Below are positions 4,349-50,327 of a stretch of 64,000 bases of DNA, one piece after another; the first letter of the stretch is position 1, and each line of letters opens with the position of its first letter. The DNA lies in contig JAGASE010000003.1 of assembly GCA_017621875.1 (NCBI GenBank), forward strand, positions 5,473 through 69,472, written 5' to 3'. The notes under the pieces are model-generated. The model worked only from the letters and a program-made list of their open reading frames with translations. It had not been told where the DNA came from and made no database searches. The position numbers and the translations under genes are program-made. The stretch is from Clostridia bacterium. Its GTDB lineage: Bacteria > Bacillota > Clostridia > UBA1381.

Positions 4349-4625
4349 TATAATCCTCCTAAAAATATTTCTTAATTGTTACAAAATTATTATACAACAA
4401 AAAAGCTGATTTGTCAAACATTTTTAACAAGTTTTTAAAATTTTGTAACAATTAGGAATAAATTCTCACAAATAATTTTTTAAAAAATCGCATAGCTAAG
4501 CGGATTCTTGATGAAAAATAAATTTTTAATAATTTTAATAAAATTCTGTTATGTGAAGAAAAAAAGGAAATAATTGTTACAATATTACAATTTATTAAAA
4601 AATACGTCGTGAATGAAAATTAAGA

Positions 4626-24864: not shown

Positions 24865-25053
24865 TTACAACCTGTTTTTTATTCTGCTCACTATTTTATT
24901 ATATTCTCCCAAATAATACTGATAGATAGGACATTCGTCCGTATTACAGCTGCTGCAAAATTTTTCGTGCATTTCATCGGTTATTGACTTTCCGCCCAAT
25001 TCGCAATAATAACCGCTTTCTGTCTTCGAGCAAGAGCTACATTTTTCAGCCAT
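24865..25053 (-). CDS. Small Cys-rich (zinc-ribbon-like) hypothetical protein
   Basis: The 62 aa product has CSSC...C and CSSCNTDEC pairs, GGAGG upstream and its own terminator at about 24801-24835. It is divergent from an XRE gene. Confidence 0.5.
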   Translation of the reverse strand: MAEKCSSCSKTESGYYCELGGKSITDEMHEKFCSSCNTDECPIYQYYLGEYNKIVSRIKNRL

Positions 25054-25179: not shown

Positions 25180-25476
25180 ATGTATAAACTCAGTGAAAGA
25201 TTAAAAGAGCTTAGAAAACGTAATAACATTAGTCAAAATGCACTTGCAAAACAAATGAATTTGACAAGAGCAACCATAAATGCATGGGAAATGGGGATAA
25301 ATTATCCCACCGCTCAATCTCTTATTATGCTTGCAGATTTTTTCAACGTAACTTCTGACTATATTTTGGGCTTGGATTCTGTTGAAACAATAAACATCAG
25401 CAAACTAAATGACGCAGAAAAGAAAATGATTTGTGACATGGTTAAATATTTAGGTGATATAAAATCGGATATGTAA
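25180..25476 (+). CDS. XRE-family HTH transcriptional regulator
   Basis: LKELRKRNNISQNALAKQMNLTRATINAWEMG is a classic HTH_3 motif. The start is placed at ATG 25180, which has AAGGTGA upstream. Confidence 0.8.
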   Translation: MYKLSERLKELRKRNNISQNALAKQMNLTRATINAWEMGINYPTAQSLIMLADFFNVTSDYILGLDSVETINISKLNDAEKKMICDMVKYLGDIKSDM

Positions 25477-25553
25477 AACGTGCGACCAATTTCTGTCGCC
25501 TGCTTGTATTTCCGACTCTTGACAAATCGCCCAATATGCTATATAATAAAAAT

Positions 25554-25638
25554 ACAAAAGGCAAGACCTCAAACGGTTATGCCAAAAGAATGTATTTATA
25601 AAAATAACGCTTCATTTGACCGTGGGCGTTATTTTTTT
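25554..25638 (+). ncRNA. Candidate antisense sRNA (antitoxin-like), copy 1
   Basis: A perfect TTGACA (25519-25524), 17 nt spacer and TATAAT (25542-25547) are present. The hairpin AATAACGC/GCGTTATT (25603-25633) plus U5 follows about 85 nt downstream. It is convergent with, and overlaps the 3' end of, the 22-codon ORF. It is homologous to the minus-strand unit at 33819-33906. Confidence 0.5.
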
Positions 25639-25697
25639 ATGGAAATTACTAAAAGTAACAGAATTATCATAAATGATATTATGTATTCATTATCCAT
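25629..25697 (-). CDS. 22-aa hydrophobic peptide MDNEYIISFMIILLLLVISIKK (type I toxin-like), copy 1
   Basis: Too short for the ORF track. A GGGGGTGA RBS lies 5 nt before the ATG at 25697. It has a single TM-like core and a KK tail. It is a paralogue of the ORF at 33760-33828, with 17 of 22 residues identical by eye. Confidence 0.5.
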   Translation of the reverse strand: MDNEYIISFMIILLLLVISIKK

Positions 25698-25773
25698 AGC
25701 TATCACCCCCTTTGCAAGAGATGATGGCATAACCGCCCAGCTTTTACGCTTGTTTTGGTCTTACCCGATAAAT

Positions 25774-25802
25774 ATTATACCCCAATTCTACAATTTTTGC
25801 AA
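25774..25802 (-). promoter_or_regulatory. Sigma-70 promoter for the small-peptide mRNA, copy 1
   Basis: On the minus strand: TTGCAA (25802-25797), a 17 nt spacer, then TATAAT (25779-25774). This gives a 5' UTR of about 70 nt. Confidence 0.5.
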
Positions 25803-26028
25803 TATGACATTCTTCAATTTATCCATTTGCAGTTTTCTATATAATAAATTTATAATTTATCAATATATTTACCCCGATTTTTATGCAAAATTTGCAAAAA
25901 ATGAAAAAAACGTCAAAAAAATAACGTAATAGGCTTGTATATTTTGCATTTTTGGTGTAAAATATAGTAAGATAAGCAAGGAATGGTTTTTTCTTGTTTA
26001 AAATATTATGTATTGGAGGACTTTTAAC

Positions 26029-27100: not shown

Positions 27101-27196
27101 ATTATGCAGGAAATTGCGTACAGCAATGACGGAATAACAAAACTGCTACCTTATTCCTACGCCCGCAGGCGGGGCTTTTATCAAAAGCTTTTTTAT
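27101..27196 (+). repeat. About 96 bp intergenic repeat element, copy A (second copy at 50230-50325)
   Basis: ATTATGCAGGAAA...AGCAATGACGGAATAACAAAA.TGCTACC....TCCTACGCCCGCAGGCGGGGCTT.TATCA.AAGCTTTTTTAT. Roughly nine positions in ten are shared with the copy at 50230-50325, which has the same orientation. Both copies begin immediately after a terminator T-run. Confidence 0.8.
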
Positions 27197-27204
27197 ACAT
27201 TATT

Positions 27205-27366
27205 TTATTGAGGTAATTCCTTTTCTTGTTTTTTCTTTAAATGAATTTTTAAAACCATATTTATATATTGAGAAAAAGAGCGTTCGGAATTTTCAGCCAA
27301 GTCCTTTATTTCGTTAATAACATTTTCATCTAACGTAATACTAACCTTTTGCTTTAGCGGTCTCAT
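27205..27366 (-). CDS. Ribbon-helix-helix (CopG/Arc/MetJ-like) DNA-binding protein, 53 aa
   Basis: Below the ORF-track cutoff. AGGTGA lies 6 nt before the ATG at 27366. In MRPLKQKVSITLDENVINEIKDLAENSERSFSQYINMVLKIHLKKKQEKELPQ, the KVSITLDE beta-strand plus the two-helix pattern is typical RHH. Confidence 0.6.
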   Translation of the reverse strand: MRPLKQKVSITLDENVINEIKDLAENSERSFSQYINMVLKIHLKKKQEKELPQ

Positions 27367-27411
27367 TTTTATCACCTCTGTCACTATAATACTACAAAAT
27401 AAAACAAAATA

Positions 27412-28568: not shown

Positions 28569-28996
28569 ATGAATAATACATATAAAAATTTGGAAGTACA
28601 ATTTAACAAACTATTCCGTCATATAAATGTCGGAAGCTACAAAACAAGCGAGCGATATGCAAAAGCCTTTAAAAGATTTATGGCGGGTTGTCCTCGCGGA
28701 CAATCAAAATTGAAAGCCAATATGTCTTTACGCGTGAAGACGGCAGAATGTATTATCCAAGCTACCCGACTGAAATGCTTACAAAATGTCTCAAAAAGAA
28801 TAACATGCCTCACATACGCTGGCATGATTTAAGGCACTCATGTGCAAGCCTGCTTATACTGAAAGGTTGGCAGATGAAAGAAATATCCGAGTGGTTAGGT
28901 CATGCAGATATTGAAACAACAATGAACATTTACGGCCACTTAAATCTTGTGCACAAGCGCAAATTGGGCGATACACTAAATGGTTTACTTGGATAA
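28569..28996 (+). pseudogene. int: Tyrosine recombinase (phage integrase) remnant
   Basis: Frame 28688-28996 encodes only the C-terminal catalytic part, ...QYVFTREDGRMYYP...IRWHDLRHSCASLLILKG...LGHADIETTMNIYGHL (HxLRH and the Tyr box). An out-of-frame 38-aa N-terminal stub starts at 28569. The roughly 200 residues of core-binding domain and box I are missing. Confidence 0.75.
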
Positions 28997-29085: not shown

Positions 29086-29161
29086 TGGTGAGCCATCGGA
29101 GATTCGAACTCCGGACAACTTGATTAAAAGTCAAGTGCTCTGCCAACTGAGCTAATGGCCC
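29086..29161 (-). tRNA. tRNA-Lys (anticodon UUU), encoded CCA
   Basis: The reverse complement is GGGCCATTAGCTCAGTTGGCAGAGCACTTGACTTTTAATCAAGTTGTCCGGAGTTCGAATCTCCGATGGCTCACCA, which folds as a cloverleaf with anticodon loop CTTTTAA. Confidence 0.92.
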
Positions 29162-29237
29162 TGGCAGGGATAGCAGGATTTGAACCTACGAAATGCCGGA
29201 ATCAAAATCCGGTGCCTTACCGCTTGGCTATATCCCT
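29162..29237 (-). tRNA. tRNA-Gln (anticodon UUG)
   Basis: The reverse complement is AGGGATATAGCCAAGCGGTAAGGCACCGGATTTTGATTCCGGCATTTCGTAGGTTCAAATCCTGCTATCCCTGCCA. It directly abuts tRNA-Lys. Confidence 0.9.
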
Positions 29238-29383
29238 AAATAACAAACCGAAAACCGCATATTTATGCTGCTTACGGCTTACAGGATACTTCTCCTGCTC
29301 TTTATTTATCTTGGAATCTTGTCCCAAAATCCAACCTTTTTTACACAGAAATTTCTGAAAATAAAAAAGGATGTTTGTAAAAG

Positions 29384-29461
29384 TGGGGTGGATAGTGGGA
29401 TTCGAACCCACGACATTCAGTGCCACAAACTGACGCTCTAACCAGCTGAACTATATCCACC
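29384..29461 (-). tRNA. tRNA-His (anticodon GUG) with G-1
   Basis: The reverse complement is GGTGGATATAGTTCAGCTGGTTAGAGCGTCAGTTTGTGGCACTGAATGTCGTGGGTTCGAATCCCACTATCCACCCCA. Confidence 0.88.
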
Positions 29462-29473
29462 ATATCAAAAAAG

Positions 29474-29550
<77 letters not shown>

Positions 29551-29563
29551 GTATTAAAAAATA

Positions 29564-29638
29564 TGGAGCGGGTGATGGGAATCGAACCCACACAGCCAGC
29601 TTGGAAGGCTGGAATTCTAGCCATTGAACTACACCCGC
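29564..29638 (-). tRNA. tRNA-Gly (anticodon UCC)
   Basis: The reverse complement is GCGGGTGTAGTTCAATGGCTAGAATTCCAGCCTTCCAAGCTGGCTGTGTGGGTTCGATTCCCATCACCCGCTCCA. Confidence 0.9.
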
Positions 29639-29806: not shown

Positions 29807-30937
29807 TTATCTACTGTCCGCTGCTATTTTATTCACCGCAAAAAGAAGCTTTTCTGCCTCTGCCTTGGTGGAGAACAGCCCAAAACCAATGCGAACGGCT
29901 CCACTTTTTTCGCTGCCGATGCTCCGGTGTGCGATATATGAGCAGTGATATCCGCCGCGTGTTGCGATTCCGAATTTTCTATTCAGAATATCCGCCGCCT
30001 CCTGAGAATCCATATCTCCTATATTGAACGCAACAGTGCCGTTGCGGTTTCCTGTGGCAAGACCGTATACAGTTACTCCTTTAATATTCATAAGCCCTTC
30101 AAAGAGCTTCTGTGCAAGAAAACGCTCCTTTCGGTCGATGTTTTCTATCCCTATATTTCTGATATACTTTACTGCTGTGGAAAGCGTCATAATTGCAGGA
30201 GTATTTAAAGTCCCCGAATGAAGCATATCGGGCATGGAATCGGGCTGATTTTTGTTTTTGGATTCCGTCCCGGTGCCGCCGACAATTACAGGATTCAGCT
30301 TGATTCCCTCCCGTACGTACAGTCCGCCTGTGCCTAAGGGCCCCATAAGTCCCTTGTGTCCGGAAAAGGCAAGAAGTGATATATTCATTGCCTCGGCGTC
30401 TATCGGAATTATTCCTGCTGTTTGTGCCGAGTCCACAAGATACGGAATGCTGTATTTCCTGCAAATTTCTCCGATTTTTCGGACAGGCATAATTGTGCCG
30501 CACACGTTGGAGGCGTGAGTGGTTATCACAAGCCGTGTATTTTTGCGTATTGCACGCTCAATATCGGCAGGATTTATTTCTCCCGCTTGGTTTGCCTGAA
30601 CCATTGTATAGCTGCAAATGCGATGAACCGGACGCAGTACACTGTTATGCTCCATGGAGGTTATAATAGCGTGGTCGCCGGGTTTTAAAATTCCGCCGAT
30701 TGCCATGTTTAGGGCGTAGGTGGCGTTTTGAGTAAAGGCTATGCGTTCGGGATTTGTAATATTAAAAAGCCCGGCAAGCTCCTCCTGTGCCTCGGCAATA
30801 CCCTCAGCACCTGCAATGCTTGCCCAATGTCCTCCTCTGCCGGCATTTACGCTGTATCTGACGGTGTTTCTGTACATCGCGTCATACACAACCGACGGCT
30901 TCTGCATGCTTGTAGCGGGGTTATCAAGATATATCAT
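29807..30937 (-). CDS. Class V aminotransferase / cysteine desulfurase-family protein
   Basis: It has a PLP fold. The SGHKGLMGPLGTGGLY lysine motif is present, and a C-terminal RGGYHCS active-site Cys loop. Confidence 0.8.
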   Translation of the reverse strand: MIYLDNPATSMQKPSVVYDAMYRNTVRYSVNAGRGGHWASIAGAEGIAEAQEELAGLFNITNPERIAFTQNATYALNMAIGGILKPGDHAIITSMEHNSVLRPVHRICSYTMVQANQAGEINPADIERAIRKNTRLVITTHASNVCGTIMPVRKIGEICRKYSIPYLVDSAQTAGIIPIDAEAMNISLLAFSGHKGLMGPLGTGGLYVREGIKLNPVIVGGTGTESKNKNQPDSMPDMLHSGTLNTPAIMTLSTAVKYIRNIGIENIDRKERFLAQKLFEGLMNIKGVTVYGLATGNRNGTVAFNIGDMDSQEAADILNRKFGIATRGGYHCSYIAHRSIGSEKSGAVRIGFGLFSTKAEAEKLLFAVNKIAADSR

Positions 30938-33304: not shown

Positions 33305-33759
33305 TATACTTTATAGCAAAAAGAAACAGGCAAGTCAAGGGTAAATGCACGAGCTTACGCTCGCCTTTGACAAACCTGTTCTTTTTTGCAGTATGCCAAT
33401 TAAGGGGATTTAAGTCAAAAGCGGACTTAAATTTCTTTTTTCAAAAAGTGTTGATTTTTAGGTTTTTGTCCCGCAATAGAACCCCATCTTCGAGATGTTG
33501 AATATAAAACCATTACCTTGTGCGTTTTAACACTTTTAAACCGCTAAAACATGGCATTTTCAACCTCTATTGCGTGACATAAATGCCATATTTGAAAAGT
33601 GTAATAATATAACCCATTTTCTGCTAAAATTCTTGCCTTTTCTTATAAACTATGTTCAAATACCATTGTTGGAGAAATCCAACTTGATGTTGGGCAAGTT
33701 CGAGGGCGGTTAGCCACCTTTTTTATTCTGCTGACTTCAGCAGGGATTGGGGTGGTTTT

Positions 33760-33828
33760 ATGGAAAACGAATACATAATTTATTTTATGATAGTTCTATT
33801 ACTTCTAGTAATAACCATAAAAAAATAA
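33760..33828 (+). CDS. 22-aa hydrophobic peptide MENEYIIYFMIVLLLLVITIKK (type I toxin-like), copy 2
   Basis: A GGGGTGG RBS lies 4 nt before the ATG at 33760. The stop codon is embedded in the hairpin at 33824-33859. It is a paralogue of 25629-25697. Confidence 0.5.
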   Translation: MENEYIIYFMIVLLLLVITIKK

Positions 33829-33906
33829 CTGCGCCTCCCGTCAAGATGAAGCAGTTATTTTAACTAAATCTCTTGGCTAACCGCTTTACGGTCTTGCCCT
33901 TTATCT
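33819..33906 (-). ncRNA. Candidate antisense sRNA (antitoxin-like), copy 2
   Basis: On the minus strand there is a perfect TTGACA (33941-33936), a 17 nt spacer and TATAAT (33918-33913). The hairpin GCAGTTATT/AATAACTGC plus U5 follows about 87 nt downstream. The sequence is conserved with the copy 1 sRNA (GGCAAGACC, CGGTTA.GCCAA.AGA, AAAATAAC.GCTTCAT.TTGAC). Confidence 0.5.
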
Positions 33907-34093
33907 GTTTATATTATAATCCAAATATTTGATTTTGTCAATAAAAATTACGAAAAAAGCTATGCGGACGAAAAATCGTCTGTATAGCTTTTATTCTCTG
34001 CAACCCTTTGAGGCCGTCGATACCTATACTGTTTTATTGAGGCTGTCATATTAGGTGCTTTTTTGATAGTTGTTGGCTATGGTGAATGGTTAA

Positions 34094-50229: not shown

Positions 50230-50325
50230 ATTATGCAGGAAACCTGCGTTTAGCAATGACGGAATAACAAAATTGCTACCAAAATCCTACGCCCGCAGGC
50301 GGGGCTTCTATCAGAAGCTTTTTTA
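50230..50325 (+). repeat. About 96 bp intergenic repeat element, copy B
   Basis: See 27101-27196. It starts right after the GH65 terminator T-run and ends 2 nt before the DeoR stop codon. Confidence 0.8.
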
Positions 50326-50327
50326 TC

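Follow-up and report, generated by a model that had tools for sequence, protein, structure and literature searches.

In a 64,000-nucleotide stretch of the genome of a Clostridia bacterium (contig JAGASE010000003.1; hereafter the window), we found two short intergenic cassettes, each combining an open reading frame (ORF) of 22 codons for a hydrophobic peptide with a convergent antisense RNA gene. These cassettes probably represent a so far undescribed and widespread family of type I toxin-antitoxin (TA)-like systems with a 3'-overlapping antitoxin. The evidence comes from sequence comparison and comprises coding constraint, promoter positions, terminator covariation, predicted pairing of the Shine-Dalgarno (SD) sequence, multiple copies in variable context and orphan antitoxin units. 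Searches for relatives yielded at least ~130 cassettes, in metagenome-assembled genomes (MAGs) of gut and rumen Clostridia and in the cultured Monoglobus pectinilyticus.

Two convergent cassettes in the window

Copy 1 lies between a gene for an XRE-type helix-turn-helix protein (25180–25476) and gap (GAPDH, from ~26029). All elements listed by the initial annotation for 25519–25802 are present in the sequence, and the cassette is composed as follows:

25774–25802, minus strand: toxin-mRNA promoter TTGCAA-17-TATAAT (10/12 consensus match)
25726–25766, minus strand: 5' hairpin of the mRNA, GGGTAAGACC ... GGTTATGCC (in the predicted fold and kept in alignments)
25702–25725, minus strand: SD-sequestering hairpin, anti-SD AUCAUCUCU / SD GGGGGUGAU (predicted fold)
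25629–25697, minus strand: ORF of 22 codons plus stop, peptide MDNEYIISFMIILLLLVISIKK (translation and family conservation)
about 25600–25640, both strands: bidirectional terminator hairpin holding the stop codon (folds of both RNAs)
25554–25638, plus strand: predicted antisense RNA of ~85 nt (both ends predicted; nhmmer E-value 6e-20)
25519–25547, plus strand: antisense-RNA promoter, perfect TTGACA-17-TATAAT (from the sequence; points at the ORF)

The predicted toxin mRNA has a leader of ~70 nt with the ribosome-binding site GGGGGTGAT at 25710–25702, 4 nt upstream of ATG 25697. Its predicted fold consists of the 5' hairpin, the SD-sequestering hairpin and the terminator, and in the minimum-free-energy (MFE) structure the anti-SD AUCAUCUCU (25725–25717) is paired with the SD. 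Copy 1 lacks the short 5'-terminal stem-loop that most leaders of the family have. Its mRNA 5' hairpin is homologous to the 5' hairpin of the antisense RNA, and both vary together by class. The stop codon (25629–25631) lies inside the terminator hairpin, and the two Lys codons before it are the source of the U-tract of the antisense RNA, which counts 6–7 U and not five as first described. The predicted 85-nt antisense RNA is made up of a 5' hairpin (25560–25583), a variable spacer and the terminator; it folds with -24.2 kcal/mol (z -4.3) into the 5' hairpin and the terminator. An upstream in-frame ATG at 25730, which would give a 33-aa version of the peptide, was rejected as the start: it lies inside the arm of the 5' hairpin without an SD, and the open frame upstream ranges from 23 to 85 codons among relatives.

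A second cassette, described before as near-identical, does exist at 33633–33993, but it is inverted, shares 76% DNA identity and 82% peptide identity with copy 1, and belongs to a different subtype. The window thus holds one cassette of subtype A (copy 1) and one of subtype B (copy 2):

33633–33661, plus strand: candidate toxin-mRNA promoter TTGCCT-17-TCAAAT (weak, 8/12; subtype-B relatives have TTGCAT-17-TAAAAT at the same place)
33668–33683, plus strand: 5'-terminal stem-loop of the toxin mRNA, GTTGGAGAAATCCAAC (kept in relatives with pairing-preserving changes)
33692–33758, plus strand: 5' untranslated region (UTR) (predicted fold and alignment)
33760–33828, plus strand: ORF of 22 codons plus stop, peptide MENEYIIYFMIVLLLLVITIKK (translation and family conservation)
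33819–33906, minus strand: predicted antisense RNA of ~88 nt (z -3.4; nhmmer E-value 1e-13)
33913–33941, minus strand: antisense-RNA promoter, perfect TTGACA-17-TATAAT (from the sequence)
33955–33993, both strands: additional hairpin AAAAGCTATGCGGACGA ... TCGTCTGTATAGCTTTT resembling a bidirectional terminator, immediately beyond the antisense promoter

The 5' UTR of copy 2 contains the hairpin GGGCAAG...GGTTAGCC, the anti-SD GCCACC, an inserted hairpin (CTGCTGA/TCAGCAG) and the SD GGGGTGG; the ORF starts with the ATG at 33760 and stops at 33826–33828. The antisense RNA carries a 5' hairpin (33875–33898) and a terminator common to the 3' end of the ORF. The extra hairpin at 33955–33993 is kept in the subtype-B consensus only and could insulate the cassette or end sense read-through.

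An nhmmer search of the 64-kb window detected no cassettes beyond these two copies. A hairpin-like match at 30056–30079 lies inside a class-V aminotransferase gene without a promoter and was discarded as a chance hit. Perfect TTGACA/TATAAT promoters occur nine times in the 64 kb, and local promoter motifs alone are therefore weak evidence; those at 4417 and 31589, for example, are unrelated and drive ordinary genes or leaders.

Related cassettes in Clostridia genomes

Relatives were collected by two approaches. A degenerate DNA pattern for the peptide segment NEYIIxFMI, run against one genome per GTDB species, yielded 89 loci, of which ~75 are true cassettes in roughly 60 Clostridia genomes. 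The matched MAGs are labelled Clostridia, Eubacteriales, Oscillospiraceae, Acutalibacteraceae, 'Ruminococcus', Ructibacterium or Lachnospiraceae, and the record titles name goat, water buffalo, deer, yak gut and Hadza samples, others being UMGS-labelled MAGs. As this search relies on the peptide itself, circularity was avoided by a second one, in which metagenome contigs were screened with the antisense 5' hairpin alone (GGCAAGACC-N5-6-CGGTTA-N0-1-GCC). This gave at least 125 matches, and about 65 of the 125 matches listed have a consensus promoter 10–15 nt upstream. On the strand opposite to these promoter-bearing hairpins, a GGAGG precedes a short hydrophobic ORF by 7–9 nt, and the ORF ends 40–55 nt from the hairpin. 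The encoded peptides range from close relatives to very different sequences, including 20–22-mers (e.g. MEYVYIIIFMITMITLVLSIKK, MDREYILTLIIVLIVLINSVKK and MGEYILYLSILLLLVLIIRK), 24-mers (e.g. MKKYILRIIFFTIVFLIAFTIKVK) and 25–31-mers (e.g. MEIAYIIAMAVIAVVAILAHRNMKK and MWVAIICITVISIVAMLVVLAASKNVKK), with one antisense scaffold common to all.

Across the alignments, the conserved unit extends from promoter to promoter over ~330 bp. Subtype A has the sense promoter TTGAAA-17-TATAAT, 75–101 nt from the ATG, and the anti-SD AUCAUCUC. Subtype B is distinguished by a weaker sense promoter (TTGCAT-17-TAAAAT), the anti-SD GCCACC with the inserted hairpin, and the extra bidirectional terminator.

Two further groups of loci were noted. 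In Monoglobus pectinilyticus, tandem unannotated cassettes (L214; NZ_OY725742.1, ~153.7–154.3 kb) encode MEYVYIIIFMIVFITLIESIKK and carry the antisense hairpin variant GGTAACCG-TTAAA-CGGTTAGCC. A fourth cassette group, found at eight metagenome loci (L097, L112, L116, L168, L169, L177, L188 and L194), has its SD-proximal ATGs in a perfect hairpin (ATGCTTA/TAAGCAT) that opens a 41-aa non-hydrophobic frame (MKSKHCTYGKK...); a conserved hydrophobic 24-mer, M[AVR]KKLLFAILEIIILLIIFSIKAQ, starts ~22 nt downstream in the +1 frame and is a candidate alternative start.

Coding constraint on the 22-codon ORF

The length of the ORF is exactly 22 codons in all 58 of the 58 unique subtype-1 coding sequences. 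Its frame shows a ratio of nonsynonymous to synonymous polymorphism (pN/pS) of 0.33, the lowest of the six, and is the only one open in 57/57 sequences; the other five frames reach 0.48–2.55 and contain stops. For the group of 24-mer peptides, pN/pS is 0.37. Within codons 12–22, which the search pattern leaves unfixed, variation is mostly synonymous or conservative: Leu13 is written with at least four codons, Leu16 changes between TTA and CTT, and position 12 is I, V or L. At loci picked by the antisense hairpin alone, frame and start codon of the ORF are likewise retained. Judged from these comparisons, the small ORF that had been proposed from copy 1 is coding and under frame-specific purifying selection.

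The predicted product of 22 aa has an acidic N-terminus, a hydrophobic helix of 15–16 residues and a Lys-Lys C-terminus, with a mean hydropathy of ~1.4–1.5. It thereby shares features of type I toxins, namely a length below 60 aa, hydrophobicity, a predicted transmembrane segment and a charged C-terminus.

The predicted antisense RNA and the shared terminator

Among 74 loci, the antisense promoter (TTGACA-17/18-TATAAT) matches the consensus at 12/12 positions in 66 and at 11/12 in five more. It is always located 78–89 nt past the stop codon of the ORF and is stronger than the sense promoter. Because 66 of 74 homologous loci keep the 12/12 promoter, and because the ORF keeps its frame, length and start, the finding goes beyond chance, and the convergent unit for a ~85-nt small RNA (sRNA) with a consensus promoter holds at the level of the sequence.

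The 5' hairpin of the antisense RNA (GGCAAGACC-loop-GGTTAYGCC) is near-invariant, even across cassettes with fully diverged peptides, and appears in the MFE fold of 124 of 128 unique sequences. The single-stranded spacer is the most variable part. In 115/128 sequences the predicted RNA, with a median length of 87 nt, ends in a hairpin plus U-tract, which is formed by 79 distinct outer helices. RNAalifold recovered the terminator from a 101-sequence alignment (A3); 8 of its 13 pairs show compensatory changes, and one pair occurs as GC (39), CG (26), UA (20), AU (8) and UG (7).

The Lys-Lys-stop codons (AAAAAATAA), read on the other strand, serve as the U-tract of the antisense terminator. After the core stem, the median is 7/8 U in the antisense direction vs 5/8 in the sense direction, in agreement with the earlier proposal that the common hairpin is the better terminator for the antisense RNA. 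The predicted antisense RNA ends within the last 3–4 codons of the ORF, at the stop-codon hairpin, so the two RNAs would be fully complementary over the terminator hairpin and the last codons; an antisense gene complementary to the mRNA is a further trait of type I systems, here at the level of the sequence. The apical loop of the terminator (median 15 nt) contains UUGR in 69 of 103 cases, compared with 15.7 expected. UUGR is a U-turn-type motif, typical of antisense recognition loops, and a U-turn loop is also present in the terminator of the enterococcal par system.

Predicted structure of the toxin mRNA

We then compared 88 unique leaders of the toxin mRNA. On average, the SD is paired with a probability of 0.92, compared with 0.58 once the upstream sequence is shuffled; in 66/88 leaders it is fully sequestered, via 44 distinct helices, which include AUCAUCUCC, AGCCACCUUU, AUCCUCUC, GCCACACUCC and CACUUCC. 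SD occlusion, initially suggested for copy 1, is thus predicted to be kept by many different helices, and the toxin mRNA appears structured to repress translation by locking its SD. In most leaders, the 5' end forms a short stem-loop (GUCGGAGAAAUCCGAC or a variant in which pairing is preserved).

As the 5' repeats are inverted, the 5' hairpin of the mRNA (GGYAAGAYY ... CGGTTATGCC) and that of the antisense RNA (GGCAAGACC-loop-GGTTATGCC) carry homologous sequence of like sense and are not complementary to each other. They change in concert (GGTTATGCC/GGTTATGCC, GGTTACGCC with GGTTACGC/TC, and GGTTAGCC with GGTTAG(T)CC); nhmmer picks up the relation between the two weakly. RNAduplex found no significant pairing between the 5' part of the antisense RNA and the 5' region of the mRNA (median z -0.7), and on this basis we rejected a pairing of the par or SprA1 type, in which the antisense 5' domain would bind the translation start of the mRNA.

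Should the toxin mRNA read through the terminator, its 3' extension would be able to pair with its own 5' UTR. In the predicted folds of such read-through RNAs, a helix between the 5' and 3' parts closes the molecule, with folding energies of -68.4 kcal/mol (z -5.7) and -87 kcal/mol (z -7.7). Cognate duplexes of 5' UTR and 3' extension have a mean of -37.7 kcal/mol vs -19.1 kcal/mol for shuffled sequences, and class-matched pairs are stronger than mismatched ones. A U-to-C change in the 3' arm breaks the intramolecular pair in both hairpins and is compensated in the 5'-3' helix, with few independent events. Tentatively, the read-through mRNA might adopt a hok/aapA1-like 5'-3' lock for which the antisense RNA competes, an idea that we regard as possible but rather unlikely from these folds. 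The matching hairpins could also stem from a site for a protein or RNase that both have in common, or from concerted evolution with some other cause. Likewise rather unlikely is a broader scheme, in which the cassettes would form a modular superfamily with one near-invariant antitoxin scaffold and at least four very different hydrophobic peptides: here, the antitoxin 5' hairpin would mimic that of the mRNA, and the antisense RNA would vie with the 5' end of the mRNA for the 3' extension, thereby deciding between a stable, inert, locked mRNA and its cleavage or activation. If true, this competing-hairpin logic would be the mirror image of par, where direct 5' repeats allow 5'-to-5' pairing.

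Copy number, genomic context and orphan antisense units

Several genomes carry two to five or more cassettes, some of them in tandem. No conserved partner gene was found beside the cassettes: 596 neighbouring ORFs fell into 497 clusters, and the commonest of these adjoins only 7 of 132 cassettes. The neighbours include what we take to be housekeeping-type genes, e.g. UvrB-like and tRNA-synthetase-like sequences. In the window, GAPDH and HAD hydrolases are encoded nearby, and the class-V aminotransferase gene and a tRNA cluster are located between the two cassettes. Comparisons with phage genomes by tblastn and blastn, and of the peptide pattern with IMG/VR, gave no match; a phage origin of the cassettes is therefore unsupported. 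Beyond the promoters, the cassette alignments showed neither terminal repeats nor target duplications.

Intact orphan antisense units were observed at four loci (L120, L193, L144 and L180) beside toxin genes reduced to their last codons, and further ones beside frameshifted toxin genes. Conversely, among 74 intact ORFs, all but three have an antisense promoter that reaches 11/12 or better. This would be expected if the peptide is harmful without the RNA, and is suggestive only, as the two sets were ascertained differently. Perfect promoters were noted at these four loci and at L133, L195 and L189, where the toxin genes are cut to the last codons or replaced; at L189, the antisense unit follows an unrelated hydrophobic ORF of 59 aa.

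Comparison with known type I systems

At gathering scores, Rfam detects only tRNAs in the window. With both cassettes searched at E<=10, the best Rfam scores were far below threshold and no family reached half its gathering score (BsrG 15.4 bits vs 55, RAGATH-35 17.3 vs 38.9 and, as the sole C. difficile sRNA hit, n00280 17 vs 65). Nine representative peptides had no credible match in Pfam, NCBIfam or PHROGs; at E<=10, no Pfam or NCBIfam family was hit, that of Fst/Ldr included. An exact look-up of six representative family peptides in a collection of 15 billion proteins found none of them, and a full-text literature search with the peptide and hairpin strings returned no paper. In these searches, the statement of the initial annotation that no described family contains this peptide held up. 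For comparison, T1TAdb lists 24 type I families (PMC8594479), and a 2019 review of Clostridia names type I systems only in C. difficile (toxins of 34–59 aa) plus a few Fst- and TxpA-like matches (PMC6563280).

With its antisense RNA gene 3' of the toxin gene, the cassette groups by architecture with the Gram-positive systems txpA/RatA, bsrG/SR4 and par. The par system (Fst/RNA II) of Enterococcus faecalis pAD1, of the Fst/Ldr superfamily, shares convergent genes with a common bidirectional terminator, repeats at both 5' ends, a small peptide with one transmembrane helix, a structured mRNA 5' end and a terminator loop that is likely the first contact (PMC8167048). The likeness to par/Fst drawn earlier therefore stands for the convergent genes and the bidirectional terminator, but not for the defining 5' repeats: those of par are direct and make RNA II complementary to the translation start of RNA I (PMC8167048), whereas those of the cassette are inverted. 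Moreover, Fst has ~33 aa and a long charged tail, as opposed to 22 aa and a Lys-Lys tail only. The Bacillus subtilis systems txpA/RatA, bsrG/SR4, bsrE/SR5 and yonT/SR6 also have membrane-peptide toxins and decay as the likely outcome (PMC8594479, PMC8167048), but their toxins are 28–60 aa long, they are mostly prophage-borne and their overlaps are longer; in the cassette, the overlap covers the terminator and the last codons only, unless the mRNA reads through. Neither sequence comparison nor covariance models revealed a similarity to these systems.

The comparison with Ibs/Sib of E. coli holds for the very short (18–19 aa), very hydrophobic toxin and the multicopy chromosomal cassettes. It fails for the antisense RNA, as Sib spans the whole ibs ORF inside the mRNA (PMC8594479), whereas the cassette antisense RNA reaches the last codons only; in addition, Ibs/Sib is Gram-negative and no sequence relation was found. 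CD2517.1/RCd8 and its relatives in C. difficile resemble the cassette in host class, convergent genes, a hydrophobic N-terminal part and a Lys-rich C-terminus (PMC6563280), but have toxins of 34–59 aa, lie by CRISPR arrays or in prophages and show no sequence similarity. Finally, hok/sok and the Helicobacter aapA1/IsoA1 system also have a primary transcript with a sequestered SD, and a long-distance 5'-3' lock of the full-length mRNA might be a further point in common (PMC8167048). For hok/sok and aapA1/IsoA1 this lock has been proven, and their antisense RNA is located on the 5' side; for the cassette, a lock is predicted only for the read-through transcript.

Proposed mechanism and alternative explanations

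We infer transcription of both RNAs, toxicity of the peptide, involvement of a nuclease and a physiological role, and propose the following course of events. A moderate or weak promoter would give rise to a short toxin mRNA with one or two 5' stem-loops and the SD in a local hairpin, which would hold basal translation low. For the 22-residue peptide we predict membrane insertion and a harmful effect on overproduction. From the opposite strand, the perfect sigma-70-type promoter would drive an antisense RNA of ~87 nt towards the ORF, stopping at the stop-codon hairpin. Present in excess, this RNA may make loop-to-loop contact with the 3' hairpin of the mRNA via its U-turn-type UUGR loop, and the resulting duplex could be subject to RNase III-type cleavage and decay, as in txpA/RatA and bsrG/SR4 of B. 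subtilis.

Several observations weigh against a TA-like system of this kind. The hydrophobic stretch of 15–16 residues is short for a membrane span, and the label 'toxin' draws on analogy. Frameshifted ORF tails occur at 7 of ~75 loci (L015, L017, L018, L040, L066, L072 and L074). Where the cause is readable, an A6 run replaces A7 over the Lys-Lys codons and turns KK-stop into KNN..., adding ~10–15 residues; the A6 run with a KNN... ending is found in 4/61 unique coding sequences and could reflect sequencing error, decay, tolerance or slippage-based switching. At one locus at least (L083), an intact, promoter-bearing ORF lacks the antisense promoter and the 5' hairpin. No prophage or plasmid link was found, unlike for many Gram-positive type I systems, and a simple 3'-overlap mechanism does not account for the near-invariant 5' hairpin of the antisense RNA.

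Among other explanations, the peptide may be a benign small membrane protein, such as a regulator or a subunit of a membrane complex, that is merely tuned by a cis-antisense RNA. Coding constraint and antisense unit fit this explanation equally well, and many conserved bacterial membrane peptides of 20–30 residues are non-toxic. It nevertheless seems unlikely to us: there is no conserved neighbour gene or operon partner, genomes hold multiple and tandem copies, very different peptides share one antisense scaffold, the SD is predicted to be tightly locked against a much stronger opposing promoter, and antisense units outlive toxin genes. Such traits are typical of addictive or selfish modules and not of housekeeping small proteins. 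The conservation of the antisense 5' hairpin, which exceeds the needs of cis-antisense pairing and persists across fully diverged peptides, together with the perfect antisense promoter, would also suit an abundant sRNA as the main product, acting in trans or binding a protein via this hairpin, with the ORF as a secondary cis partner. Yet the spacer, the usual site of trans-acting seeds, varies more than any other part, a hydrophobic ORF or what is left of one almost always accompanies the unit, and pairing to the cognate mRNA 5' region was not significant, so that we consider this very unlikely.

An even lower probability is assigned to a non-autonomous mobile or repetitive (MITE-like) element, whose repeats and promoters would be incidental and neither of whose products would be functional. 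The multiple copies at variable intergenic sites, the inverted repeat of ~25 bp near each end and the sharp end of conservation at the two promoters are what such an element would show, but the ORF is under frame-specific purifying selection, terminator and SD helices covary at the RNA level, the repeats lie within transcribed regions instead of at element ends, and no target-site duplication or transposase association was seen. Least probable of all is that the 149-aa ORF (25480–25929, plus strand) is a real gene and that the small ORF and the promoters arose by chance. This ORF exists, and public assemblies of the contig list it among their called genes. As remarked initially, it has no ribosome-binding site: it begins with GTG without an SD and crosses two promoters and the terminator, its product belongs to no Pfam family, and its frame is among those that fail in relatives, where stops interrupt the frames antisense to the small ORF in 22–57 of 57 sequences and pN/pS is higher. 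With near certainty, the 149-aa ORF is a spurious call hiding the cassette.

Other features of the window

Upstream of and divergent to the XRE gene, a 62-aa Cys-rich ORF (CSSC ... CSSC ... C; 24865–25053, minus strand) adjoins it; it has no Pfam match and is called as a gene in public assemblies. An 82-nt direct repeat (27115–27196 and 50245–50326, 90% identical) contains GC-rich hairpins (CCCGCAGGCGGG) and T-runs. One of its copies lies just past gap, and the repeat may be a shared 3' UTR, a terminator or a small RNA. Between the cassettes, a CopG/DUF6364-like ORF of 59 aa (27205–27384, minus strand), a 102-aa phage-integrase fragment (28688–28996, plus strand) and an adjoining cluster of five tRNAs (29089–29638, minus strand) were identified; the CopG/DUF6364-like ORF and the integrase fragment by the tRNAs look like the remnant of an integrated element.

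Significance

Within Clostridia, the type I systems described so far hardly extend beyond C. difficile and a few homologues of established families (PMC6563280, PMC8594479). The cassettes also point to a gap in annotation, as gene callers miss the 22-codon ORF and a spurious ORF of 149 aa is annotated over the cassette. The near-invariant antisense hairpin provides a ready probe for diverse mini-toxins. The peptides are among the shortest candidate toxins and may serve as compact membrane-active peptides, with a possible use as counter-selection markers in genetically intractable anaerobes; the cultured Monoglobus pectinilyticus, which carries the cassette, offers an experimentally tractable host. 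The inverted arrangement of the 5' hairpin repeats points to a variant form of antisense control, and these mirror-image repeats may constitute a mechanistic variant within the type I kind. Altogether, the family would add a widespread multicopy system in uncultured Oscillospirales and Monoglobales, which are dominant in gut and rumen communities.

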